A DNA stretch of 64,000 nt, taken from NCBI GenBank assembly GCA_020428795.1, contig JAGQME010000003.1:30438-94437 (forward strand), in the 5' to 3' direction. The first letter of the stretch is position 1; each line of letters begins with the position of its first letter. This document shows positions 44,897 through 56,002 of the stretch, in pieces. Origin of the DNA: Candidatus Kaiserbacteria bacterium (lineage in GTDB: Bacteria > Patescibacteriota > Minisyncoccia > Phycocordibacterales > UBA918). Made by a program: the position numbers and the translations under genes. The notes beneath the pieces were generated by a model that was not told the DNA's origin, searched no databases, and saw only the letters and a program-made list of their open reading frames with translations.

Positions 44897-45407
44897 GTTT
44901 ATGTTTGAAAAGATTTGGGGATCAAGAGTTACGCCACCTGGAGAAGAAGCTAAAGAACACGGTTTTCGGGAAAGAAAGGAAAGAGCTCAGAAAGCTATTG
45001 AGGCTGGTGTTTTGATTGACGGTAGATTGGGTGTTAGAGAAAAAATGCTTGCTGATTTGCCAGAATTAGCCGGTGAAAATGATCCAGATCTAGAGGTTAA
45101 GATAGACGAATTAGTGGCTTTTGCTAATAGATTTCACGAAAATATGTCAGAGCTTGGTATTGAATTAAGTGTCGAAGACCTGAAGGGATTTTATGTGGGT
45201 AGGATTCAAGGGTTTTCTGATCTATACACAAATAAGGTCGGTAATGCTGATTTTAATAGATATGAAGTCTACAAGGATTTACATCTTTCACTCAGAGACT
45301 ATCGGGACACCGGCGAATTTAACTCTATATTGAAGCAGATTGCTGGGGTGGAGTTTTTGACCGTGACGGCAGAGGAGACTTTTGGTGATGACGCCGTGGC
45401 TTCTTAA
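44886..45407 (+). CDS. Hypothetical protein
   Basis: 173-aa ORF co-directional with hpf. No motif recognised. Confidence 0.35.
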   Translation: MVSRFMFEKIWGSRVTPPGEEAKEHGFRERKERAQKAIEAGVLIDGRLGVREKMLADLPELAGENDPDLEVKIDELVAFANRFHENMSELGIELSVEDLKGFYVGRIQGFSDLYTNKVGNADFNRYEVYKDLHLSLRDYRDTGEFNSILKQIAGVEFLTVTAEETFGDDAVAS

Positions 45408-46303
45408 TCGAGGTTTTGGTAATTAAAATATTGATTAAAATTCATCTCGGCTTTACCTGCTGGAGTTACTGTTTCTATACACAGTTTTCCGTCTTCAGAA
45501 AGATGAGCCTGCTTAATTTTTATACGTTTTTCATTGTGCATAAAAAAAGTCTCTGGCCAACCGGTGTAGGCACGGATTTTTAATAGGGCAGAATAGGCCT
45601 CTTCTCCTTCTGGTAGGTGGTAGGGGTCAATCTGGAGCTGGCCCATCTCCTTGGATATTTTGCCACAGTAAGTGGCTTGGTCATGATCTTGGGCCACTGG
45701 TTGGATTTTTTTGTCTAACCAATCTGGTATAACCTGGGCCAATAATTCACCACCAAAGCTGGCCATTTTGTTATCCAGAATTAAGCCGGATAGGGGCCAG
45801 TCTTCTTTAGCGATAGCTATTTTTTCTTGTCTAAGAATGGGGCCATGATCCATTTCCTCATCCATTAACATAATTGAAACACCACAATTTTCTCTCATGT
45901 CGTTTAGGATGGTGCTTCTTATCGGGCTGGCTCCACGTAGTAGGGGCAACATAGATGGGTGAACATTTAAGGTGCCATACTTAGGTATATCTATGACTGA
46001 CTTGGGTAAAATTTTATTATAGGCCACTACTACAAATAAATCCCAGTTCACACTAGCTAGTATCTCTAATTCTTTTTCATCTTTTAGTGTTTCTGGTTGC
46101 CAGATCGGTATCTTTCTGTCACTTGCCCAAACTTTTACCGGTGGTGGGGTGGGGACCATTTTTCGACCCTGTCTGCGATCCGGGTTACAAACAACCAGGC
46201 TGGGTTTTAAACCAACCTTTTCTAATTCATTTAGAACAGGGACAGCAAGCGGTTCGCCACCAAAAAAAGCAAACTTGATTTCATTTTGTCTGACCTTAGA
46301 CAT
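45404..46303 (-). CDS. fmt: Methionyl-tRNA formyltransferase
   Basis: Formyltransferase motif LNVHPSMLPLLRGASPI and a C-terminal tRNA-binding domain. Confidence 0.85.
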   Translation of the reverse strand: MSKVRQNEIKFAFFGGEPLAVPVLNELEKVGLKPSLVVCNPDRRQGRKMVPTPPPVKVWASDRKIPIWQPETLKDEKELEILASVNWDLFVVVAYNKILPKSVIDIPKYGTLNVHPSMLPLLRGASPIRSTILNDMRENCGVSIMLMDEEMDHGPILRQEKIAIAKEDWPLSGLILDNKMASFGGELLAQVIPDWLDKKIQPVAQDHDQATYCGKISKEMGQLQIDPYHLPEGEEAYSALLKIRAYTGWPETFFMHNEKRIKIKQAHLSEDGKLCIETVTPAGKAEMNFNQYFNYQNLD

Positions 46304-46823
46304 CGTTTTCTTTATTTATTTTATCCATCTCTTCCTTAGTGAAAACTCGTTCGGCCCGATCAGTAAATAGGATTCCGTCTAAATGATCGTATTCGTGCTG
46401 AATTATTTGTGCCAAAAGTCCACCGGCTCCTCGTTCGTATTTCTTACCGGTTTCGTCATGTGCCCGCATGGTTACATTTACATATCTAACCACTTCACCG
46501 TATTTGTCTGGGACCGAAAGACAGCCTTCGCCCACCAAGTGAGTTTTTTTAGAGGTCTTGACGATTTTGGGATTTACCGCTACCAGATTGGGAATGGCAT
46601 CACGGTCTTTACTCTGATCTTCAATCAAGAAGACTCTTTTACTAACTCCAATTTGGGGAGCGGCGATAGCAATAGCTACATAGCCATCAACACTGTAGCT
46701 TTTTAGAGCGCTACGCATATCTTTAAGTAGCTTGGTCAGGGTGCCGTCACTAAACTCTTGTTCAGTGATTTCTTCAGCAATAGAATGTAGCGCTGGGTGG
46801 TTTTCGGGGACTAGTTTAGCCAT
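46296..46823 (-). CDS. def: Peptide deformylase
   Basis: Motifs IAAPQIG, EGCLS, QHEYDHL. Overlaps fmt by 8 nt. Confidence 0.88.
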   Translation of the reverse strand: MAKLVPENHPALHSIAEEITEQEFSDGTLTKLLKDMRSALKSYSVDGYVAIAIAAPQIGVSKRVFLIEDQSKDRDAIPNLVAVNPKIVKTSKKTHLVGEGCLSVPDKYGEVVRYVNVTMRAHDETGKKYERGAGGLLAQIIQHEYDHLDGILFTDRAERVFTKEEMDKINKENDV

Positions 46824-46909
46824 ATTGTTTTTGTGTACTATACAATAAATTGCCAAAAAAACCACTGACTGATTGGTGTCTAGCTAATCAGATCATTTTG
46901 TCTTTTTGG

Positions 46910-48805
46910 TTAGACTATTCTTTCAGGATTGACTTCAACTTTGATAAAAGGAGGTAGGGAACGAAGCTCGTCCATTAATTTTCGATCCGGCCAATTTGAT
47001 TTACTAATTCTTAGTAACCCGTGTCTGATGATTTTGGATTGGTGGGATTGCGGTGAGTTGTAGTAAGAGATTGGTTGGGAGGTAATAGTTGAATCTATCA
47101 TCGCTTCATAACTAGTCACTTGTTCTTGGGTGCCCATGATTGTTAAAAGTATAAAAATACAAAACGGCGGGTAGTTTAAAGCTTCTCTTATTTCTATTTC
47201 ATCGGTGTAGAAGGAATCTATCAAACCTCGTCTGGCTATTTTTAGAATGTCATCTGGTTCACTTCTGGTCTGCACGATACATTCTTTAAGAGTGTGTTCT
47301 TGGAGAGTGTATAGCAAAGAAAGTAATGTTTCATCCGCTCGCCAAGTAGCCAAGGCTCTGGCTGCTTCGTACGAAGTGACGACTGACACATCTATTGATT
47401 TGGGTAGATAGGGGAGCGACATGTGTGTACCAATCATTATGATGCCCTTTGTGCTAGAAAACTGCTTGGCTAGAGCGGTGGCTTTTTTGTGAGTTGTGGC
47501 GGTGGTGCGATCAAAGGTGATCTTGGGTACCTGAGGAAAGATTTTGCTTACTTCGTCTAAGATTTGTTGAATTCCAAAACCCTGTTCTCGTAATCGCCAA
47601 CTGTTGCAGCGAGGACAGACATCAGCGGCTCGGATTTTTTTGCCGGAGGTACTAGAGACGAACCAACGTCTCTCCACGTCACCTTCGACCGTTCTCATGA
47701 GTGAATAGGGGGTACCACTATCCGGACATCTAAATAGATAACCACAGTCATAACACAAGACTGCTGTCGCCAAACCCCGCCTGGCTGCATAAAGGAATAC
47801 CTTGCCTTTTAGGGTTAGGGTCCTTTTGATGGTGTCTATGGTGTCAGGTAACAAAATCTGGAAGTTTTTCTGGGGGACGGTCTCGGTTTCTTTGGCAGCG
47901 ATTATTAGATTTGAGCCAAACTGAATTCTTTGGGTGTGTTCTTCTAGGGTGCTGTATATTTCGTTTCTACGCAGAACCTCATCTTCGGTTGAAATAACCA
48001 TATCGCCTAGAATGACGGAACGTTTAGTGATTTTAGCAAATAATTTTAAGACATCTCGGAAGTCTAGGTAGGGTCTATTTTTTGACTTATAAAAAGTGCT
48101 ACCAGAGTCATCGATAATGATAGTGGAGACATCTTCTCTAGCAATCATGGCAAAGCTGGGGGTTGATACGATTAAAACAGCCTCTTTGGCTTCTTGTAAT
48201 GTCTTGTATGATTTTGCTAGATGACTTTTGCTATAGGTGCTGGCGAAAGTAATAACTCTTTTTTCAATGCCGTTTTCTAGTTCAGCTTTAGCCTTAGAAA
48301 CTTGAGCGGAGGTTGGTACGATAAACAAGACGGAGTTTTTGTGGGCGAAATTTTGTCTGATCTGTTGACGGTAAATAATCATCCTATCTTCTCTTCTGCC
48401 AGTAAAGACGGCCGGAGTAATATCGGTATCAACATCGGCTCTTTCTTTGGTGAGGTTTGGGTAGGGTCGAGCGCCGGCTCTGATGTCTGGCGGTAGAAGG
48501 GTGTATAAAATAGCGCCTAGTTTAGCCGGATAAAATTCAGTTAATTTCTTTGCTGTCTCAATAACTCCGATCGGTATAACAGGGCAGTTTTTTTGTACAT
48601 TCAACTTACGTAAAGAGAAAGTAGCGGCCCTAAGAGCAGTTTTGGCAGCTGACACCGGCTTGATTTCAGTCACTAAAGCCGTCACTTCTTTTTTTCTGAT
48701 TGGAACAAGAATCAGTGATCCGATCTGATATTCCTGACTAGAATAATAAGTCAGAGTTTCCACCTGACTACCTTTTATTAACGGTATAACTGAGACAATA
48801 AACAT
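46910..48805 (-). CDS. priA: Primosomal protein N' (PriA)-like, with degenerate helicase motifs and an intact Cys4 zinc-binding region
   Basis: N-terminal 3'-DNA-binding-domain-like region. A Cys-rich insert CYDCGYLFRCPDSG...CPRCNS. Conserved priA-def-fmt gene order. No canonical GxGKT Walker A visible. Confidence 0.65.
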   Translation of the reverse strand: MFIVSVIPLIKGSQVETLTYYSSQEYQIGSLILVPIRKKEVTALVTEIKPVSAAKTALRAATFSLRKLNVQKNCPVIPIGVIETAKKLTEFYPAKLGAILYTLLPPDIRAGARPYPNLTKERADVDTDITPAVFTGRREDRMIIYRQQIRQNFAHKNSVLFIVPTSAQVSKAKAELENGIEKRVITFASTYSKSHLAKSYKTLQEAKEAVLIVSTPSFAMIAREDVSTIIIDDSGSTFYKSKNRPYLDFRDVLKLFAKITKRSVILGDMVISTEDEVLRRNEIYSTLEEHTQRIQFGSNLIIAAKETETVPQKNFQILLPDTIDTIKRTLTLKGKVFLYAARRGLATAVLCYDCGYLFRCPDSGTPYSLMRTVEGDVERRWFVSSTSGKKIRAADVCPRCNSWRLREQGFGIQQILDEVSKIFPQVPKITFDRTTATTHKKATALAKQFSSTKGIIMIGTHMSLPYLPKSIDVSVVTSYEAARALATWRADETLLSLLYTLQEHTLKECIVQTRSEPDDILKIARRGLIDSFYTDEIEIREALNYPPFCIFILLTIMGTQEQVTSYEAMIDSTITSQPISYYNSPQSHQSKIIRHGLLRISKSNWPDRKLMDELRSLPPFIKVEVNPERIV

Positions 48806-48841
48806 GACAGCTTAGTATAACAAAATCTAAAAAAATCAAGA

Positions 48842-48873
48842 AAAAGGCGTTTTCTTTAGAAAACGCCTTTTTC
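48842..48873 (-). terminator. Terminator hairpin downstream of murA on the minus strand
   Basis: aaaaaggcgttttct-tta-gaaaacgccttttt. Confidence 0.65.
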
Positions 48874-48894
48874 ACTTTTTGTGATATCTGAAAT

Positions 48895-50397
48895 CTAGAA
48901 TTCTTCTAAATAGCTAACCTTGGCTCCCAAACTATTAAGTCTCTCGACCAATTTTTCATAACCACGATTGATGCTATAGATGTTGCGCAAAACACTTTGA
49001 CCCTTGGCCCCTAGCATGCCAATCAATAAGATGGTGGCTGGTCTAAGGGCTGGTGGACAGATGAGCTCGGCCGGTTTTAGGGTGGTTGGTCCATTTATAT
49101 AAATGCGGTGTGGATCAGCCAGTACGGTGTCAGCTCCTAATTTATCTAGCTCAGTAAAGTAGATAGCACGTTTTTCGTAGACCCAGTCGTGTATTAGGGT
49201 TTGACCAACCGCTTGGGTAGCGATAACGGCGAAGAAGGGAAGGTTGTCTATGTTTAGACCCGGATAAGGTCTGGCGTATACTTTTTCGTGCAAAGATACC
49301 AACTTCGAAGGTTTGGTGGTTATGTCTACCAAACGAGTTAAGCCATTATGGCTTAGGTAAGGCTTTGATTTGGTGTACTTGAAGCCCATCTTTTCTAACT
49401 TTAGTAATTCCAGTTCTAGAAAATCTATTGGACAGCGAGTGATTTTAATACTCGATTTTGTCACGATAGCGGCCGATAGGAAAAACATTGTATCGGTAGG
49501 ATCTTCGCTTAGGGTGTATTCGATTGGTGAATTTATCTTAGTCACGCCGGTTACTCTCAAGGTGGTGGTTCCAACTCCTTCAATCTTTACACCGCAAGTT
49601 TTTAGAAAAGCACAAATTTCTTGCACCATGTAGTTGGCTGAAGCATATTTGATAACAGTAGTGGTCGGAGTTAAAGCGGCTGCAAATAGAGCGTTTTCAG
49701 TAACGGTGTCACCTGATTCGTAGAGAATTATCTCCTTTGGTTCAGCTGGTTTAACTTTTACCTCAAAGTGTTCATTGGTGGTTTTTATATTGACACCATA
49801 ATGTTCTAGGGCGTAAAGGTGAGGTTGGACGGTCCGGCTTCCGAGTTTGCAACCACCGGACTGAGGTAGGGAGAAGGCTTTTAGTTTGTGGATTAAAGGG
49901 CCGATAAACATGACAATGCTACGGGTACGTTTGGCCGATTCCACATCTATTTTGTCCAAGTTTAATTTTTGGGGTGGGGTGATATAAAGGTCACTGTCTT
50001 TCCATTCAACTTTAACCCCAATACTTTCCAAAACTTCAATAATACGATGTACTTCTTCGATACGGGGTATGTTCCTTAGCTTCGTGGTACCGCTGTTTAA
50101 TAGGGAGGCGCATAGCAGGCCAACCGCACCGTTTTTTGAGGTGTTGGTTTCTATAGTGCCGGTTAACTTCAGGCCGCCATCAATAGATATATTTACCGAG
50201 CCAGGTTGGGCTGAAACAATGTTTCGTTTCAAAGCAACACTGATTTTTCTTAATAAATCGGTCGATACATTTTGTTTACCGGATTCAATTCTAGCCACAG
50301 CGCTTTGGGTGGTAGAAATCTTTGCGGCTAAATCTTTCTGAGTTAGTCCAGTAGCTTCTCTTAAGTGGGCAATTCTTACTCCAATATTTTCATTCAT
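48895..50397 (-). CDS. murA: UDP-N-acetylglucosamine 1-carboxyvinyltransferase (MurA; EPT fold) with an N-terminal XRE-type HTH domain fusion
   Basis: N-terminal HTH GLTQKDLAAKISTTQSAVARIESG. This is followed by EPT-family blocks (TNTSKNGAVGLLCASLL, two-domain inside-out alpha/beta repeats) through the C-terminus. Start taken at MNENIG. Confidence 0.75.
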   Translation of the reverse strand: MNENIGVRIAHLREATGLTQKDLAAKISTTQSAVARIESGKQNVSTDLLRKISVALKRNIVSAQPGSVNISIDGGLKLTGTIETNTSKNGAVGLLCASLLNSGTTKLRNIPRIEEVHRIIEVLESIGVKVEWKDSDLYITPPQKLNLDKIDVESAKRTRSIVMFIGPLIHKLKAFSLPQSGGCKLGSRTVQPHLYALEHYGVNIKTTNEHFEVKVKPAEPKEIILYESGDTVTENALFAAALTPTTTVIKYASANYMVQEICAFLKTCGVKIEGVGTTTLRVTGVTKINSPIEYTLSEDPTDTMFFLSAAIVTKSSIKITRCPIDFLELELLKLEKMGFKYTKSKPYLSHNGLTRLVDITTKPSKLVSLHEKVYARPYPGLNIDNLPFFAVIATQAVGQTLIHDWVYEKRAIYFTELDKLGADTVLADPHRIYINGPTTLKPAELICPPALRPATILLIGMLGAKGQSVLRNIYSINRGYEKLVERLNSLGAKVSYLEEF

Positions 50398-50507
50398 ACG
50401 ACATGAGTATAGCATATTTGCTATACTATAATAATAATTTTTGGGGAAAGTTGATTTGTCATATATAAGACTTGGCATTTTCTTAAAAACAGCTACTATA
50501 CATATTC

Positions 50508-51521
50508 ATGCTTAATCGTTTTTCACCAAAAATTGGAATAGATTTGGGGACGACTACAGTCTTGGTGTATGTACCGGGTCAAGGAATCGTTTTAAACGAA
50601 CCATCGGTGGTCGCCGTTTCAGATAATAATCAAGTCTTGGCGGTTGGGGCAGAGGCTAAATTAATGATTGGTCGTACTCCGGAAAACATCAGAGCCTATC
50701 GGCCGATGAAAGACGGTGTAATTGCTGATTATCGAGTGACCGAAGCCATGCTTAGATATTTCTTTAGAAAATCGCTAGGGAAATATCATGTGTTCCGGCC
50801 GGAGGTGATGATTTCTGTTCCGGCCGGAGTGACCTCTACTGAAAAAAGAGCGGTGGTCGAAGCGGCTGCCAACGCTGGGGCAAAAAATGCCTATGTTGTG
50901 AAAGAACCCATTTTAGCAGCCATTGGGGCTGGTCTGCCTATCTATGAACCACGGGGTCATATGATCGTTGATATTGGTGGTGGAACTATTGATGTGGCTG
51001 TAATTGCTCTTGGCGGTATCGTGGCGGCCAACTCGGTGAAATGCGCCGGTAACAGGATTGATACGGCCATCATTGATTATGTGAAGAAGAGTAAGAATTT
51101 GTCTATTGGAGATAAGACCGCCGAGGAGGTTAAAATTAAAATCGGTTCAGCCTTACCACTTGAAGAAGAATTAACAATGAGCATAAAAGGTCGTGATGTG
51201 GTCACTGGTCTACCAAGAACGACTGAAATGAAGACCAATGAAATAGTTAGAGCCATTAGTCGTGAATTAAGGGAGATGGTGTCAGCGATTAAAGAGGTCT
51301 TCCAAAATACACCACCGGAACTAGCTTCAGATATTATTGATCACGGCATAATTATGACGGGCGGGACTTCACAATTGAGAAATTTTCCGGAACTGATTAG
51401 ACGACGGACCGGAGTCAAGGCGATTTTGGCGGATCAAGCTTTGTTTTGTGTGGTTAAAGGAACTGGTATGGCTTTGGAGCATTTAAATACCTACAAACGA
51501 TCGATTTTAACCAAAAGATAA
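50508..51521 (+). CDS. mreB: Rod-shape-determining actin homolog MreB
   Basis: IGIDLGTTTVLVYV phosphate-1 motif, DIGGGT phosphate-2 motif, adenosine motif MTGGTS. Confidence 0.9.
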   Translation: MLNRFSPKIGIDLGTTTVLVYVPGQGIVLNEPSVVAVSDNNQVLAVGAEAKLMIGRTPENIRAYRPMKDGVIADYRVTEAMLRYFFRKSLGKYHVFRPEVMISVPAGVTSTEKRAVVEAAANAGAKNAYVVKEPILAAIGAGLPIYEPRGHMIVDIGGGTIDVAVIALGGIVAANSVKCAGNRIDTAIIDYVKKSKNLSIGDKTAEEVKIKIGSALPLEEELTMSIKGRDVVTGLPRTTEMKTNEIVRAISRELREMVSAIKEVFQNTPPELASDIIDHGIIMTGGTSQLRNFPELIRRRTGVKAILADQALFCVVKGTGMALEHLNTYKRSILTKR

Positions 51522-51588: not shown

Positions 51589-54363
51589 ATGAACGAATAC
51601 GCTCCGCAAAAATTCGCCTCACCAGAGGAGGAGATTACTTTTTTACGTAACCAGATCGCATCCAAAGAGCGAGAGCTACTGGAGCGTAGTCCTGAAGCTG
51701 ACCGAACTGATCTAGAGTCGATAGCTAAACATGAGCTACTTGAATACGGTACTTTCACTCCAAATTCTGTATTAGATAAGGCTCATCAATTACCTGACAA
51801 AGAGGTGACAGAGTCAGTCATAAAGGTCGAAACCACCCTAGAACCAATCGAAGAAATCATACAGATCGCCAAAGAAAAAGGCATTCATAACGCCTTAACA
51901 GTTTTAGAAAAAACCAAGAATGCTTTCACTACCGATGAAGTACATCGTCGGTTAATCGAGTTGATAAAATCTGACGTTGCTATCCAGAATTTAAAAGAAG
52001 GTGTACCACCGTGGCAGATACTTCATATGACTTTATTTGAGGTTTCCTTGCCAGAAATCTCTGAACATCACGGCCAAGCGTATCAGTTGAGCGAGATTAT
52101 TAGCATGATGGAGCAGTTCTTTTCGGGTATGCAAAACGTCGGTCAATATGAAAAGAATCTGCATTATGTAATCGAAATAGCTGTCGCTGATAAAAGTGAC
52201 GAGATTGTTTTTTATGTAGCGGTACCGACCAACTACGTAGATTTGTTCCAAAAACAGATTTTGTCACTATATCCACACGCTGAATTAACCGAACAGGTCC
52301 ACGACTACAATATCTTTGTGGAGGGGGGAGAGTCGATAGTGGCTAGAGCTGAATTAAAGAAACATCATGTGTATCCGATTGCTCAAAAGGAGTCGTTTGA
52401 GTCTGATCCTTTGTCAGTTATATTAAATGCTTTTTCGAAGATTGAGAGGGAGGGCGGCGGAGCCGCCCTCCAATTTGTGATCAAAAGAGCACCTCAAAAA
52501 TACACTTCAGTCTACGAAGGCATAATCAAAAGAGTTCGAGACGGAGTAAAACCAAGCGAGGCAATTGCTAGAAGCTCGCTTCGTGGTGAAATATTTTCAA
52601 GTTTTAAGGAGATCGCTTTTTCCGGTACCAAAAAGAAAGACTACAGTGCTTTGCCGACTCATGACCACGTTGATCAAGATGCTCTGGAGTTATTTAACGA
52701 AAAACTAAAGTTTCCGGTGGCTGATGTAAATATAAGGATTGCTGTATCCAGTCGAAGTGAAGCTCGGTCTAAGCAAATACTCTCTGAAGTGGAGTCAGCT
52801 TTTAATCAGTTTGAGAGAACGCAGGGTAATCGTTTTGTTTTTAAAACTCTAAAAGGCTCCGCTTTAACTCAAGCCATCAAAGCTTTTTCTTTTCGAGAAT
52901 TTGTGGCTTCAACCACTTTACCGTTAACTTTTCGAGAATTAGCCACTGTCATTCATTTTCCAGGGGCTGGTATAAACACCTCGCCACAGTTTAAACAATC
53001 AAGAGCCAAAACCGCCGCCGCTCCGGTTGATATGCCTAGTTCCGGCACCTTACTTGGTATAAATTCTCATCGAAGTATTCAGAAAGAGATTTATATCACC
53101 GAAGAGGATCGTATGCGACACTTTTATGTGATTGGACAGACCGGTACCGGTAAGACGACTCTAATGAAAAATATGTTGGTTCAGGATATTCAGGCTGGAC
53201 ATGGTGTTTGCTTTATCGATCCACACGGTACCGATATTGAGGACGTCCTCTCAGCGGTTCCGCGTGAGCGAGAGCAAGACATTATTTATTTTGATCCGTC
53301 TCGTACTGACCAAGTGGTAGGTCTAAACATGCTGGAGTACGACATCAATAAACCCGAACAAAAAACCTTTGTAGTAAATGAGCTATTTTCAATTTTCCAA
53401 AAACTGTACGGTGCCAATCCAGAAAGCATGGGTCCGATGTTTGAACAGTATTTCCGAAATGCCACTTTGTTGGTGATGGAGGACCCTGAGAGTGGTAATA
53501 CTTTGATGGATATTAGTCGAGTGATGGCCGACGCTAAGTATCGTCGTATGAAACTAGAAAAAGCGACCAATCCAGTCGTTACTCAATTCTGGCGAGAGAT
53601 TGCTACCAAAGCCGGTGGGGAAGCTTCGCTTGAAAATATCGTGCCTTACATCGTTTCAAAATTCGATGTATTTACCGCCAACGATTATATGCGACCAATT
53701 ATCGGCCAACAGAAATCGGCTTTTAATTTCCGTCATATTATGGATGAGAAGAAGATATTGTTGGTAAATCTATCCAAAGGTCGCCTCGGTGAGATTAATG
53801 CCAATCTGATCGGTATGATTATTGTCGGGAAGATACTGATGGCCGCTCTTTCAAGAGTGGATGATCCAACCAAGGGCTTTCCGCCATTTTTCTTGCATAT
53901 GGATGAGTTTCAAAATGTCTCTACCGATTCTATTTCCGCTATTCTTTCAGAAGCTCGTAAGTATAAACTTGGTCTAACCATCGCTCATCAGTTTATCGCT
54001 CAGTTGGATGAAAAGATTAAAGATGCGGTGTTTGGTAACGTGGGTTCTATGGTGGCTTTTAGAGTGGGTCCGGAAGATTCACAATTTCTAGAACAACAGT
54101 TTTCTCCAACTTTCACCGCCAACGACTTAATGAACATCCCTAATCGAAATGCCTATGTTAGAGCGCTGGCCAATGGTTCACCAACTAAACCGTTTAGTAT
54201 GTCAACCATCGCCCCAATGGAAACCGACTTGAATCGAGTTCAGTCACTTATTTTGGCTAGCAATCAAAGAAATGGTCGGCCAAGGGAAGAAGTTGAAGCC
54301 GAGATTTCTGCCCGTTATCAAAAACCAACCCTACCAGAATCTAATCCGTTTGCTAAGATATAG
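51589..54363 (+). CDS. Large FtsK/HerA/VirB4-clade P-loop ATPase (AAA_10/TraC-like C-terminal half; N-terminal ~500 aa of unknown function)
   Basis: Walker A IGQTGTGKTTLMKNM, followed ~25 aa later by CFIDPHGTD. Walker B FFLHMDEFQN. Sensor region ARKYKLGLTIAHQFIAQ. No TM helix. Confidence 0.65.
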   Translation: MNEYAPQKFASPEEEITFLRNQIASKERELLERSPEADRTDLESIAKHELLEYGTFTPNSVLDKAHQLPDKEVTESVIKVETTLEPIEEIIQIAKEKGIHNALTVLEKTKNAFTTDEVHRRLIELIKSDVAIQNLKEGVPPWQILHMTLFEVSLPEISEHHGQAYQLSEIISMMEQFFSGMQNVGQYEKNLHYVIEIAVADKSDEIVFYVAVPTNYVDLFQKQILSLYPHAELTEQVHDYNIFVEGGESIVARAELKKHHVYPIAQKESFESDPLSVILNAFSKIEREGGGAALQFVIKRAPQKYTSVYEGIIKRVRDGVKPSEAIARSSLRGEIFSSFKEIAFSGTKKKDYSALPTHDHVDQDALELFNEKLKFPVADVNIRIAVSSRSEARSKQILSEVESAFNQFERTQGNRFVFKTLKGSALTQAIKAFSFREFVASTTLPLTFRELATVIHFPGAGINTSPQFKQSRAKTAAAPVDMPSSGTLLGINSHRSIQKEIYITEEDRMRHFYVIGQTGTGKTTLMKNMLVQDIQAGHGVCFIDPHGTDIEDVLSAVPREREQDIIYFDPSRTDQVVGLNMLEYDINKPEQKTFVVNELFSIFQKLYGANPESMGPMFEQYFRNATLLVMEDPESGNTLMDISRVMADAKYRRMKLEKATNPVVTQFWREIATKAGGEASLENIVPYIVSKFDVFTANDYMRPIIGQQKSAFNFRHIMDEKKILLVNLSKGRLGEINANLIGMIIVGKILMAALSRVDDPTKGFPPFFLHMDEFQNVSTDSISAILSEARKYKLGLTIAHQFIAQLDEKIKDAVFGNVGSMVAFRVGPEDSQFLEQQFSPTFTANDLMNIPNRNAYVRALANGSPTKPFSMSTIAPMETDLNRVQSLILASNQRNGRPREEVEAEISARYQKPTLPESNPFAKI

Positions 54364-54367
54364 TAGT

Positions 54368-56002
54368 ATGAGTACCGAAAATATCAAAACAAGCTTAGGT
54401 AATAATGAAGAGAATAATGAGTCTTTTGTTGATCCATCTGTGATTGATTTTAAAAGACGATTGGAGAGTTTTTCTATTGATTTAGATTTGTCTAAATTTG
54501 GGCATATTGATAGTGATGAACATGGTGAAGCTGGGGAAATCTCACTGGGGGCAAGAGAAGTTATTGATGATAATGTCAATGAATTAAATATTCAATTATC
54601 AAGTCAGAGATCAAAACTGTTCAATAAGAGTGAGTCTCCCTATTTTTCTGAATCTAGCGAACGACCACTTAAAATGAGCGAGGTGAATAATCTTTTTTTC
54701 AAGACTTTGGAGAGTGAAGGTTATCCGGTGCCAGTTGTCCATAAGATAATGGATATTCATGTTTATCCTTCAGCATCGCAAGTCTATGATGAAGGTTCAA
54801 ATCAAAAGAAAATCAATGAAGAAAAAAGACAATTGAAAGAAGACAAAGTCGTCGATACAGAAAATCCTTTTGCTACTTTAGTTGCTCAAGATGTAAGTTC
54901 TTCAGAAGAGGAGGTTAATTATTATCACACGGCATTGATTAGACATTTTCAACTATTACATAATATTCTGAATCACCCTGAAGAATTTGGTTTAAACAAG
55001 GAAGAGTTGCCTGACAAATTGCATGAAGTTAAATTAACCACAGAAGAATTTAAACAAAGATTAAATGATTCTGATTTACCCATCCATGAAATATTTATAG
55101 TGAACGGAGTAGAGGTAAGAACTGCTGTTAAAAGTCAGATTGTTAAAAAATTAATTTCTGAAAAATTCAATACCGAATTCCCACACCAAACTGATGTACA
55201 AAAAGAAAAAACTGAAGAATTAAAATTATCTTTTTTAAGAAATATTCCATTCACTATAATTCATGATATGTATGAATTAGAAAAGAAAAAAGATTCGGTT
55301 AGGTATTCACCTAAAAATAAAGAAGTTCTTGCTGTACTCAATGCAAAGTTAGTTACTTTGCTTGAGGATTTTTTAGATGAAGGTGATGAAGGTTCTGGTA
55401 GAAAATCAGGTTTTGTTAGGTATGGAAATTTATTAATCAACGGCCTTGATGATGAAAATAATGTTTATGATTGGCCGTCACTGACTTTGCGTCTACCATT
55501 AGCGGTTAAGTATGCAGTTAATACCGAGAGAAATCCAGCCAGAAGATCTGAGCTGAAGGATAATTTTTATCATGAGCTGGTTACTAAAAGATATAATCCT
55601 GAAAAGTCTGAATTACTAAAAGCTACGTATTTAGGTAACGCAAGTGATTCTCTGGAACTAATTCATACCGATGAGGCTGGAGACAAGCCTGTTAAATTGA
55701 TTATTGCTGAAGTCAGGTATTTACTAGAAGAGGTGGGTTATAATGAAGAAGATCAAATTAAAGCTTTAGGAAATATAGGAGTTTCTTATTTTGATGAACT
55801 CAATTACTTAAGAAATAGTTTGAATGAAATTAAAGGCAAGCCAGATACAAGCAATAATGAAATAAAAGCTATTAAAGTTAGGATTAGAAATGAAACCAAA
55901 TCCTTCGTTGTTGCTGTTAGAAATAGACTCAACGATCCATCGGGTACTCTTAAAATTCTAGATGCCGGAATAAAACCCCAAGAACTTGAAAAATATGAAT
56001 GA
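54368..56002 (+). CDS. Hypothetical acidic protein (about 545 aa), second gene of the ATPase-led operon
   Basis: Starts 4 nt after the ATPase stop (MSTENIKTS). No recognisable domain. Confidence 0.4.
   Translation: MSTENIKTSLGNNEENNESFVDPSVIDFKRRLESFSIDLDLSKFGHIDSDEHGEAGEISLGAREVIDDNVNELNIQLSSQRSKLFNKSESPYFSESSERPLKMSEVNNLFFKTLESEGYPVPVVHKIMDIHVYPSASQVYDEGSNQKKINEEKRQLKEDKVVDTENPFATLVAQDVSSSEEEVNYYHTALIRHFQLLHNILNHPEEFGLNKEELPDKLHEVKLTTEEFKQRLNDSDLPIHEIFIVNGVEVRTAVKSQIVKKLISEKFNTEFPHQTDVQKEKTEELKLSFLRNIPFTIIHDMYELEKKKDSVRYSPKNKEVLAVLNAKLVTLLEDFLDEGDEGSGRKSGFVRYGNLLINGLDDENNVYDWPSLTLRLPLAVKYAVNTERNPARRSELKDNFYHELVTKRYNPEKSELLKATYLGNASDSLELIHTDEAGDKPVKLIIAEVRYLLEEVGYNEEDQIKALGNIGVSYFDELNYLRNSLNEIKGKPDTSNNEIKAIKVRIRNETKSFVVAVRNRLNDPSGTLKILDAGIKPQELEKYE

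Follow-up and report, generated by a model that had tools for sequence, protein, structure and literature searches.

An XRE-type helix-turn-helix domain fused to MurA in Candidatus Kaiserbacteria, with a candidate operator at the promoter of its own gene

The HTH-MurA gene, its product and its relatives

The stretch of Candidatus Kaiserbacteria DNA analysed here (64,000 nucleotides, hereafter the window) encodes on its minus strand a protein in which an XRE-type helix-turn-helix (HTH) domain precedes a MurA-like enolpyruvyl transferase (EPT). The gene, the parts of its product and the flanking elements are arranged as follows:

48840–48873, no strand: bidirectional intrinsic terminator after murA (15-bp stem, T-runs on both sides)
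48895–50397, minus strand: HTH-MurA coding sequence (500 aa plus stop; one continuous ORF with both Pfam domains)
48898–50193, minus strand: MurA (enolpyruvyl transferase) domain, aa 69-500 (NF006873 at 312 bits, MurA matches in the PDB, Foldseek, residue mapping)
50194–50223, minus strand: flexible linker of ~10 aa, aa 59-68 (minimum of AF2 confidence)
50224–50385, minus strand: XRE/Cro-C1-type HTH domain, aa 5-58 (HTH_3, AF2 helices)
50284–50313, minus strand: putative recognition helix TTQSAVARIE, aa 29-38 (best-conserved part of the HTH; residue 30 co-varies with an operator base)
50508–51521, plus strand: mreB, the divergent neighbour (MreB_Mbl, E 9.7e-131)

The longest version of the minus-strand ORF extends from 48895 to 50478 (527 aa); initiation at the ATG at 50397 yields the 500-aa product, in agreement with homologue lengths of 499-500 aa. 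An NCBI entry with exactly this sequence bears the name 'UDP-N-acetylglucosamine 1-carboxyvinyltransferase [Candidatus Kaiserbacteria bacterium]'. The initial annotation had described a fusion of an XRE-type HTH to a full-length MurA-like enzyme, and one uninterrupted reading frame indeed holds both domains: PF01381 (HTH_3) was matched at aa 10-58 (Pfam; E 7.6e-12, score 45.5 bits at a cutoff of 23), PF00275 (EPSP_synthase) at aa 73-487 (Pfam; E 1.8e-44, profile positions 2-417 of 417), and the peptide that had been quoted for the HTH, GLTQKDLAAKISTTQSAVARIESG, is located at aa 17-40. The AF2 model comprises four helices in the HTH (aa 5-15, 20-26, 31-38 and 46-56) and is least confident at the linker (block mean of 59 for aa 61-70, values below 50 for aa 62-65); according to this model, the HTH is an independent module joined to the enzyme via the low-confidence linker. 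Neither a frameshift nor a stop, as had been considered for a pair of separate genes, lies between the domains, and the homologues possess the same ORF. The suggested survey of relatives for the HTH extension revealed HTH plus EPT in all of the best 120 clusters at 90% identity (~500 aa); since these carry both domains at ~100% coverage, a split-gene sequencing error is excluded, and an assembly or sequencing artefact linking a small XRE gene and murA has a negligible probability, the same unbroken ORF recurring in hundreds of assemblies produced independently by different projects.

The enzyme part is MurA and not AroA, the point on which the initial annotation had allowed for error: it scored 312.3 bits with the MurA subfamily model NF006873 (NCBIfam; cutoff of 297 passed) and 300.9 bits with the murA equivalog TIGR01072 (NCBIfam; under the cutoff of 392.7). 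An identity as AroA (EPSP synthase) was rejected at 78.6 bits with TIGR01356, as compared with the required 287.25, and AroA structures were ranked by Foldseek under all MurA and NikO structures. The two-domain EPT fold is present in the AF2 model (pLDDT 90.7), whose best Foldseek matches in the PDB were all MurA (TM-scores 0.87-0.94); the best PDB sequence match to MurA chains had an E value of 9e-51, at ~25-28% identity to solved or characterised MurA proteins. The E. coli residues K22, N23, R91, C115, R120, D305, R371 and R397 correspond to K88, N89, R159, C183, R188, D384, R452 and R478 (the catalytic Cys183 codon occupies 49849-49851), and R410 is also present in the MurA domain; from these retained residues the enzyme is predicted to be catalytically competent. 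Several positions that line the UDP-GlcNAc pocket of the E. coli enzyme (K160, S162-G164, D369) are aligned with other residues.

Relatives of HTH-MurA form at least 245 protein clusters and are encoded in at least 493 species-level (GTDB) genomes. The carriers belong to the Patescibacteria (Kaiser-, Nomura-, Taylor-, Lipton-, Colwell- and Doudnabacteria) and include cultured Nonomuraea (Actinomycetota). The alignment to the query starts within the first four residues in 78 of 80 related loci, the other two being cut at the contig end, and the full KNRCRDRR catalytic signature is kept in 245 HTH-bearing proteins examined. Among fusions with only 32-54% identity of the enzyme domain, conservation within the HTH is highest at the putative recognition helix. 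In a close relative (P0122) the HTH is lost and the enzyme unfused, which is a secondary loss; in another protein (P0127) the HTH is decayed (17% HTH identity) next to an intact enzyme. The proposal of a lineage-specific phylogenetic marker thus stands only in part: The fusion, very common among Patescibacteria, is found in Nonomuraea as well, was lost or decayed in the two cases just named, and has a catalytically dead paralogous branch.

In this dead branch (P0132, P0133, P0139, P0145, P0148, P0214 and P0256) the counterparts of C115, R91, R120 and R371 are lost, and the HTH and fold-level similarity are kept. Two of the five dead-branch loci that were read (P0132, P0133) adjoin murA, murB, ddl or mur ligase genes: The dead-enzyme fusions are divergent from a murA-murB or murA-containing operon, with the operator in the intergenic region between them. 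The best 120 relatives of the canonical MurA encoded beside them bear Collierbacteria, WWE3 and other non-Parcubacteria labels; a Kaiserbacteria or Parcubacteria label is found for none of these 120. The branch documents an enzyme-to-regulator transition inside one family.

Because the terminator follows murA, the gene constitutes a monocistronic unit, with a priA-like gene beyond the terminator; the gene order mreB<>HTH-murA-priA-like-def-fmt recurs in other Parcubacteria. No cognate toxin gene adjoins the gene in an operon, the upstream neighbour being mreB and the downstream one the priA-like gene. No second MurA-like gene was found within the 64-kb window.

A palindrome at the putative promoter and its pairing with the HTH subtype

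The intergenic region towards mreB contains two overlapping elements:

50406–50427, no strand: candidate operator, a perfect 22-nt palindrome AGTATAGCA-AATA-TGCTATACT (single match in the window; kept in related loci)
50406–50414, minus strand: extended -10 promoter element TGCTATACT, identical with the right arm of the palindrome (weight matrix; 8 nt from the ATG)

The palindrome has the form ATAGCA-N4-TGCTAT; its core, ATAGC-N6-GCTAT at 50409-50424, is matched once in the 64-kb window, compared with 0.00 matches expected by chance. Of the 80 related loci, 78 have a single copy, in each case upstream of the HTH-MurA gene; in the remaining two the sequence ends at the 5' end of the gene, so that all loci retaining upstream sequence (78/78) possess it. 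The arms reach 2.0 bits per position in the related loci, the flanks less than 0.3 bits. In Nonomuraea, the corresponding element is ATCTCA-TATG-TGAGAT, 13 nt upstream of the ATG in a GC-rich genome.

The position weight matrix runs on asymmetrically to TGCTATAcT. A TGnTAnnnT motif at the same spacing from the ATG as in HTH-murA precedes 12 of the 52 window genes, and an SD-like motif is found at only six of the 52; as 8 nt separate the extended -10 element from the ATG, a leaderless mRNA is predicted. Among 79 loci, 64 have TGnTATAnT as the right arm and a palindrome core that ends 4-14 nt short of the ATG; the other 15 have the palindrome at a distance of 22-254 nt from the assigned start. 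The mirror position of the final T of the -10 hexamer is conserved in only ~28% of the loci, so that promoter function does not account for the left arm. In the unfused relative P0122, TGCTATACT is retained and the left arm is degenerate; in another locus (L083) the element sits between a TTGACA -35 and the -10.

The palindrome was also considered as a divergent mreB promoter and rejected as a general explanation, given the low conservation of the mirror T and a promoter-like site nearer the start of mreB (TTGGCA-16-TACTAT at 50472-50499, promoter scan); mreB is probably not under control of the operator. The intergenic region has no match to a known RNA element in Rfam. Additional operator copies beyond chance were found neither in the 64-kb window, with two mismatches allowed, nor elsewhere in the 9.5-kb related loci; therefore autoregulation alone, and not a regulon, is supported.

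A metagenome search for the exact 18-mer TATAGCATATATGCTATA provided 80 metagenomic loci for examination (452 kb). HTH-MurA neighbours had been expected at most of these sites; their presence at 17 of the 80 at first seemed to speak against specificity. A similar XRE HTH is, however, encoded at most 900 nt downstream of the 18-mer in 50 of the 80 loci: Besides the 17 with HTH-MurA, 33 belong to stand-alone XRE genes or RelE/Gp49-like toxin-antitoxin operons, and since the XRE genes at these 33 sites encode this HTH subtype too, the pairing of HTH and operator is strengthened. Every HTH match in the 452 kb (50/50) adjoins the palindrome. Thirteen contig-internal sites among the 80 lack a neighbouring HTH gene and may have arisen by chance, the DNA being AT-rich.

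The recognition helix of the stand-alone XRE and antitoxin partners conforms to T(K/T)QS..(S/A)R.E. Helices of the type xTQS pair with ATAGC (78 loci and L211 of Doudnabacteria), and TSQS helices pair with ATATC (L081, L083, L087 and L212). Residue 30 would accordingly specify the operator base, Thr going with G and Ser with T; few independent evolutionary switches appear to underlie this co-variation, and the NJ tree of the family is rough and carries no support values. The rule was predicted beforehand for two further proteins (P0292 and P0295) and then confirmed in both.

Autorepression and alternative readings

The reading preferred here, to which we assign a probability of roughly 0.75, is that HTH-MurA acts as an autorepressing trigger enzyme bound at its own promoter. 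At the level of sequence, an enzyme and a DNA-binding domain are found in one chain, with a candidate operator at the promoter of the same gene. The C-terminal 430 aa would function as a competent MurA (UDP-GlcNAc enolpyruvyl transferase), and the XRE HTH on its short linker would, as a dimer, occupy ATAGCA-N4-TGCTAT, the half-site centres of which are ~11 bp apart, i.e. one DNA helix turn. As the right half of the palindrome would coincide with the extended -10 of the gene's own, probably leaderless, promoter, occupancy would exclude RNA polymerase and the enzyme would repress its own synthesis, whereby MurA dosage would be fixed by negative feedback. DNA binding, dimerisation and repression as the direction of control are inferred from comparative evidence; because MurA enzymes are usually monomers, dimerisation must be assumed. 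Of the three roles offered in the initial annotation (autoregulation, moonlighting, or an adaptor function of the HTH), it is autoregulation that gains specific support, through a palindrome over the gene's own predicted -10 that is invariant (78/78) and single in each locus, recurs beside other genes for this HTH subtype, and changes in step with a residue of the recognition helix.

Because the dead sister branch keeps the HTH and the operator beside a canonical murA(-murB) operon, a further step is suggested, namely that the ligand state of the MurA domain (UDP-GlcNAc, PEP or UDP-MurNAc) modulates DNA binding. The open/closed transition of MurA is driven by ligand occupancy. In a wider and more tentative formulation, which we hold to have somewhat less than an even chance, the whole HTH-MurA family would consist of hitherto unrecognised transcription factors with a MurA-fold sensor: the active enzyme would read the precursor state and the dead paralogue would serve canonical murA-murB. 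Precursor occupancy would then lead to repression of the protein's own leaderless promoter in Parcubacteria, and the dead paralogue would do likewise for canonical murA-murB in other Patescibacteria.

Autorepression has to be weighed against the possibility that the fusion is only an enzyme, with a vestigial HTH or one serving as an adaptor, and that the palindrome is bound by an unlinked regulator or represents an unusual promoter. The enzyme can do without the HTH, since the latter was decayed in P0127 and lost in P0122, and the right arm is an ordinary extended -10 as at other window genes. However, the recognition-helix region remains 56-75% identical at an enzyme-domain identity of no more than 32-40%, the left arm has no role in the promoter yet does not vary, and it degenerated where the HTH was lost (P0122), the palindrome accompanies the same HTH subtype at unrelated genes, and helix and base co-vary as predicted in advance; taken with these observations, an enzyme-only function appears unlikely.

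About equally improbable is that the window protein serves mainly as a regulator, or as an enolpyruvyl transferase for another substrate, with a separate canonical murA elsewhere in the genome. Such a function would be in line with the missed TIGR01072 cutoff, the low identity to characterised MurA, the deviating positions K160, S162-G164 and D369, the coexistence of dead-enzyme relatives with canonical murA, and the Nonomuraea gene, which adjoins an integrase gene and may be an extra copy. On the other side, the core residues for catalysis and PEP binding are all retained, the NF006873 cutoff is passed, the window is devoid of a second MurA-like gene, and the canonical MurA beside the dead fusions has no relative labelled Kaiserbacteria or Parcubacteria among its best 120.

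An action of the palindrome as RNA, i.e. as a hairpin in the 5'-UTR with an effect on translation or stability, the HTH being unrelated to it, seems very improbable. The sequence can fold into a 7-9-bp hairpin, the change from ATAGC to ATATC is mirrored in both arms with pairing preserved, and the distance of 22-254 nt from the assigned start in 15 of the loci would suit such an element. Yet the predicted transcription start falls downstream of the palindrome, which is therefore predicted to be untranscribed; the 64 loci with a -10-like right arm close to the ATG, the position between -35 and -10 in L083, and the missing Rfam family all argue against an RNA, and the arms of the ATAGC class are invariant in sequence instead of varying with pairing kept.

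Relation to known systems and biological meaning

Peptidoglycan synthesis is committed at the step catalysed by MurA, the enzyme that fosfomycin targets. With MurA, MurAA and MurZ (EC 2.5.1.7) the window protein has in common the two-domain EPT fold, the flexible Cys115 loop and the catalytic residues. In contrast, the matched solved MurA chains (417-458 aa) all lack the N-terminal XRE HTH that it carries, and it belongs to a divergent subfamily of Patescibacteria below the TIGR01072 cutoff. Control of MurA as known so far is post-translational, by ClpCP/ReoM/PrkA proteolysis in Firmicutes, UDP-MurNAc feedback and LpxC coupling in Pseudomonas; to our knowledge, none of these routes involves a fused DNA-binding domain. 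No description of the HTH-MurA fusion was found in a literature search that left many subscription-journal papers outside its reach, and the arrangement with a candidate operator at the gene's own promoter seems not to have been reported for MurA.

The trigger enzyme concept is reportedly that of Commichau & Stuelke from 2008. Enzyme-repressor fusions include BirA (HTH and biotin ligase), PutA (RHH and proline dehydrogenase) and NadR (HTH and NMN adenylyltransferase). HTH-MurA resembles them in the combination of an enzyme with an N-terminal DNA-binding domain in one polypeptide and in a palindromic operator over the promoter of the gene itself or its pathway, but differs in the enzyme family and in the pathway, here peptidoglycan; BirA and PutA demonstrably bind DNA in a ligand-dependent manner, which for HTH-MurA is a hypothesis. 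XRE autorepressors and type II antitoxins (HigA/HipB-like; Cro/CI-type) have the PF01381 HTH and the operator 18-mer in common with it; unlike the antitoxins, HTH-MurA is without a toxin partner, and its HTH is placed on a 430-aa enzyme and not in a ~95-aa stand-alone protein. MocR/GabR proteins, in which an HTH is combined with an aminotransferase fold, are pseudoenzyme-sensor transcription factors. Their likeness belongs to the dead branch; the window protein, in which every catalytic residue checked is kept, is not a pseudoenzyme.

How MurA levels are set is an active question, for which a fused repressor domain with a precisely defined operator would offer a testable transcriptional feedback. 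Patescibacteria have tiny genomes and few regulators, and the arrangement is common to hundreds of their uncultivated members; the Nonomuraea carriers are cultivable, so that genetic tests are possible. The T/S-G/T co-variation represents a rare recognition rule of one residue and one base for XRE domains. If the family indeed consists of regulators with a MurA-fold sensor, it would constitute a direct circuit from precursor to transcription across much of the Candidate Phyla Radiation, with a testable code.

Domain architecture and distribution of the fusion protein

The HTH-murA gene and its surroundings in the window comprise the following features:
50478 to 48895, minus strand: HTH-murA, a single open reading frame (ORF) with no interruption
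50406-50427: perfect palindrome of 22 nt, directly upstream of HTH-murA
48840-48873: putative bidirectional terminator between murA and the priA-like gene (15-bp perfect hairpin, T-runs on both strands)
45404-51521: conserved gene order (also at the related loci L213 and L214 and in the context of protein P0296)
51589-59801, plus strand: three large consecutive ORFs (924, 576 and 1271 aa), almost unannotatable

Started at the ATG at 50397, the product has 500 aa, the same as homologue lengths (499-500 aa), and contains an XRE-type HTH_3 domain (aa 10-58; Pfam, E 7.6e-12) and a full-length EPSP_synthase/EPT domain (aa 73-487; E 1.8e-44). Among the NCBIfam models, NF006873 scored 312 bits (cutoff 297) and TIGR01072 301 bits, which lies under its strict cutoff of 392.7, and the aroA model reached 79 bits, far below the MurA models; the closest solved structures are all MurA (top: 5ujs, E 9e-51). 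In the AlphaFold2 model (pLDDT 90.7, pTM 0.84), an N-terminal four-helix bundle (aa 5-15, 20-26, 31-38, 46-56) is followed by a linker modelled at low confidence (aa 57-68) and then by the EPT body of two domains, whose best Foldseek matches are MurA structures (TM-scores 0.87-0.94), with NikO and AroA ranking lower. Alignment with E. coli K-12 MurA, taken from the annotated genome, revealed conservation of K22, N23, R91, C115 and R120 (K88, N89, R159, C183 and R188 in the window protein) as well as of D305, R331, R371 and R397 (D384, R410, R452 and R478). On the basis of both domains, the MurA scores and the retained catalytic residues, the fusion proposed by the initial annotation is therefore confirmed, and its enzyme part is classified as MurA-type and not as AroA, the alternative named there. 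A second MurA-like or HTH-like copy was absent from the 64 kb.

The exact protein is present at NCBI, labelled Candidatus Kaiserbacteria MurA; databases label such proteins automatically as MurA or 'helix-turn-helix domain-containing protein'. Both domains occur at full coverage in the best 120 clusters (90% identity), and in 78 of the 80 best loci (labels: Kaiserbacteria, Nomurabacteria, Paceibacteria, Parcubacteria) the match begins within the first four query residues; L067 and L071, the remaining two, end at a contig edge. Relatives are encoded in 493 genomes of a scan with one genome per GTDB species. A search begun from a distant member added at least 1,881 clusters (E <= 1e-20), and the best 120 matches are all HTH+EPT proteins, the named ones belonging to Lipton-, Taylor-, Colwell- or Doudnabacteria, Paceibacterota and Parcubacteria. 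The full catalytic signature is kept in 245 HTH-bearing sequences among the collected proteins of 400-560 aa.

The HTH extension is thus present in hundreds of genomes with many Patescibacteria labels; the presumed lineage specificity holds insofar as the fusion is common under these labels and fails insofar as it also occurs in Nonomuraea (Actinomycetota). Unexpectedly, cultured Nonomuraea species are the source of P0121 (cluster of 246 members), which among the representatives at 50% identity is nearest to the window protein: it shares 53% identity, has the fusion and keeps the catalytic residues. In the one locus examined, the gene (Nonomuraea sp. NEAU-A123, L090 5972-7530) adjoins a phage-type integrase gene, and horizontal gene transfer between Patescibacteria and Actinomycetota may account for this copy.

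As to the neighbourhood, the order (RRF-holB-)mreB <> HTH-murA - priA-like - def - fmt is shared by distantly related Parcubacteria; the 631-aa priA-like product of the window has no Pfam match at 1e-5. The only match within the ORF trio at 51589-59801 is a weak HerA/DUF87 ATPase match of the first, and the products of these ORFs may form an apparatus for secretion, for DNA translocation or at the cell surface.

A conserved palindrome at the HTH-murA promoter

Upstream of HTH-murA the sequence reads AGTATAGCA-AATA-TGCTATACT-CATGTCGT-ATG. The core of the palindrome, ATAGC-N6-GCTAT, matches once in the 64-kb window (0.00 expected from shuffles), and the palindrome is single-copy in 78 of 80 related loci, always 5' of the fusion gene, the two loci lacking it being those cut at the 5' end of the gene. 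A position matrix built from 79 upstream regions gives 2.0 bits per position within the arms and less than 0.3 bits in the flanks. The distance from core to ATG is 4-14 nt in 64 of 79 loci (most often 11-12 nt). Towards the right, asymmetric conservation gives TGCTATAcT, an extended -10 element; about 8 nt separate its hexamer from the start codon, and a leaderless HTH-murA mRNA is therefore predicted. The transcription unit would end at the strong terminator at 48840-48873. In Rfam, the upstream region has no match.

The murA promoter does not account for the conservation of the left arm. A divergent promoter including this arm was considered and rejected, the mirror of the hexamer's final T being kept in only about 28% of loci.

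Among the start regions of 52 ORFs in the window, an SD-like motif was found at only six, and TGnTAnnnT ending 4-11 nt before the start at no fewer than 12. Leaderless mRNAs therefore seem to be common in the source organism; judged from these regions, the extended -10/leaderless promoter style is normal for the window genes.

Pairing of the HTH domain with the candidate operator

The following sites in related loci bear on the pairing:
L091-L170 (e.g. L091 819-836, L092 413-430, L137 3661-3678): 18-mer before stand-alone XRE or antitoxin genes
L168 959-976 and 2013-2030; L170 498-515 and 531-548: 18-mer in duplicate, recognisable HTH gene nearby absent
L081 3482-3497; L083 5973-5988; L087 about 1453-1468: operators ATATCA-N4-TGATAT of the dead-enzyme branch
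L082 240-300: upstream region of the unfused relative P0122

Three independent lines agree on the palindrome as the candidate site of the fused HTH. Firstly, a metagenome search with the exact 18-mer TATAGCATATATGCTATA (80 loci, 452 kb in total) placed an HTH-MurA gene beside it in only 17 loci, and 33 adjoin other genes for a similar XRE HTH: stand-alone proteins of about 95 aa (beginning MKRQHLDF and containing GTKQSVISRLESG) or RelE/Gp49-like toxin + XRE antitoxin operons. All 50 HTH matches in the 452 kb have the palindrome upstream of them, at a distance of no more than 900 nt; 17 of the 80 sites lay too near a contig end to be judged, and 13 are internal to their contig with no HTH gene nearby. 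This points to an HTH-operator pair common to unrelated gene contexts, and stand-alone or antitoxin XRE proteins are a possible origin of the fused domain.

Secondly, helix and half-sites co-vary. An xTQS recognition helix accompanies ATAGC half-sites in 78 of 78 Kaiserbacteria-type loci with the palindrome, and serine at the co-varying position occurs in none of 38 recognition-helix motifs beside ATAGC palindromes of the metagenome loci; TSQS fusions have ATATCA-N4-TGATAT at the equivalent position (L081, L083, L087, L212). For two TSQS proteins, P0292 (Liptonbacteria) and P0295 (Paceibacterota), ATATC was predicted beforehand and found in both, 9 nt before the ATG and again as TGATATAA(T/A). 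P0391 (Doudnabacteria) has a TTQS helix and ATAGC half-sites, yet a rough NJ tree places it with TSQS sequences. Nonomuraea carries ATCTCA-TATG-TGAGAT 13 nt upstream of the ATG, in an AT-rich island of a GC-rich genome; the general operator form would be ATnnCA-N4-TGnnAT. Besides, in fusions whose enzyme domain shares only 32-40% identity with that of the window protein, the recognition-helix region is still 56-75% identical.

Thirdly, in P0122 (60% identical, without HTH, its gene likewise divergent from mreB) the TGCTATACT promoter element is preserved and the left operator arm has decayed to AATGCA, which looks like a natural loss of both HTH and operator, in a single example. Another relative, P0127, has a decayed HTH. 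An adaptor role of the HTH without DNA binding, next to an unrelated palindrome, is disfavoured by all three lines (metagenome pairing, co-variation, left-arm decay with HTH loss) and appears unlikely.

The dead-enzyme branch and proposed autoregulation

In a minority branch (P0132, P0133, P0139, P0145, P0148, P0214, P0256) the HTH is kept and C115, R91, R120 and R371 are lost; PEP-binding and catalytic residues are thus missing, with N23 and D305 kept in most members. The P0133 gene is divergent from a canonical murA-murB operon, with the operator inside the 60-bp intergenic region and ddl and a mur ligase gene downstream; that of P0132 is divergent (25 bp) from an operon with a mur ligase gene and canonical murA. 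Of the five loci read, two (L081, L083) have a canonical murA next to the dead fusion, together with murB, ddl or mur ligase genes. The dead-enzyme proteins resemble dedicated regulators with the MurA fold as sensor, and the branch is likely a pseudoenzyme regulator of peptidoglycan genes.

Among the best 120 relatives of the canonical MurA beside dead fusions, the labels include Collierbacteria, WWE3 and Chloroflexi, and none bears a Parcubacteria label; this fits, without proving, the view that Parcubacteria use the fusion as their working MurA. That the fusion is something other than the housekeeping MurA seems improbable. An RNA hairpin as the role of the palindrome is very unlikely, because the element contains the -10, so that it should escape transcription, and because its arms are sequence-invariant inside each class. 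A frameshift or assembly artefact joining two genes is ruled out by the conservation data.

The reading with the best support is that of a trigger enzyme which represses its own gene; among the roles offered by the initial annotation, autoregulation is favoured by the conserved, unique operator on the gene's own promoter, its pairing with the HTH and their co-variation. Each half-site would be bound by one HTH domain, the distance between the half-site centres being about 11 bp. Since the operator overlaps the -10 (in L083 it sits between a TTGACA -35 and the -10), binding would occlude RNA polymerase, and repression of the own promoter would keep MurA dosage under negative feedback. DNA binding may further be modulated by the ligand state of the enzyme domain, as suggested by the dead-enzyme branch.

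Composed of a PF01381 HTH and a divergent MurA, the protein functionally resembles trigger enzymes of the BirA, PutA and NadR type as well as XRE autorepressors and antitoxins. A literature search of incomplete coverage found no published description of the fusion, the operator or the dead-enzyme branch. For specialists in cell wall and regulation HTH-MurA would be moderately surprising, and its control is testable: it offers a defined 22-bp site, a one-residue, one-base specificity rule and, in Nonomuraea, a cultivable host.
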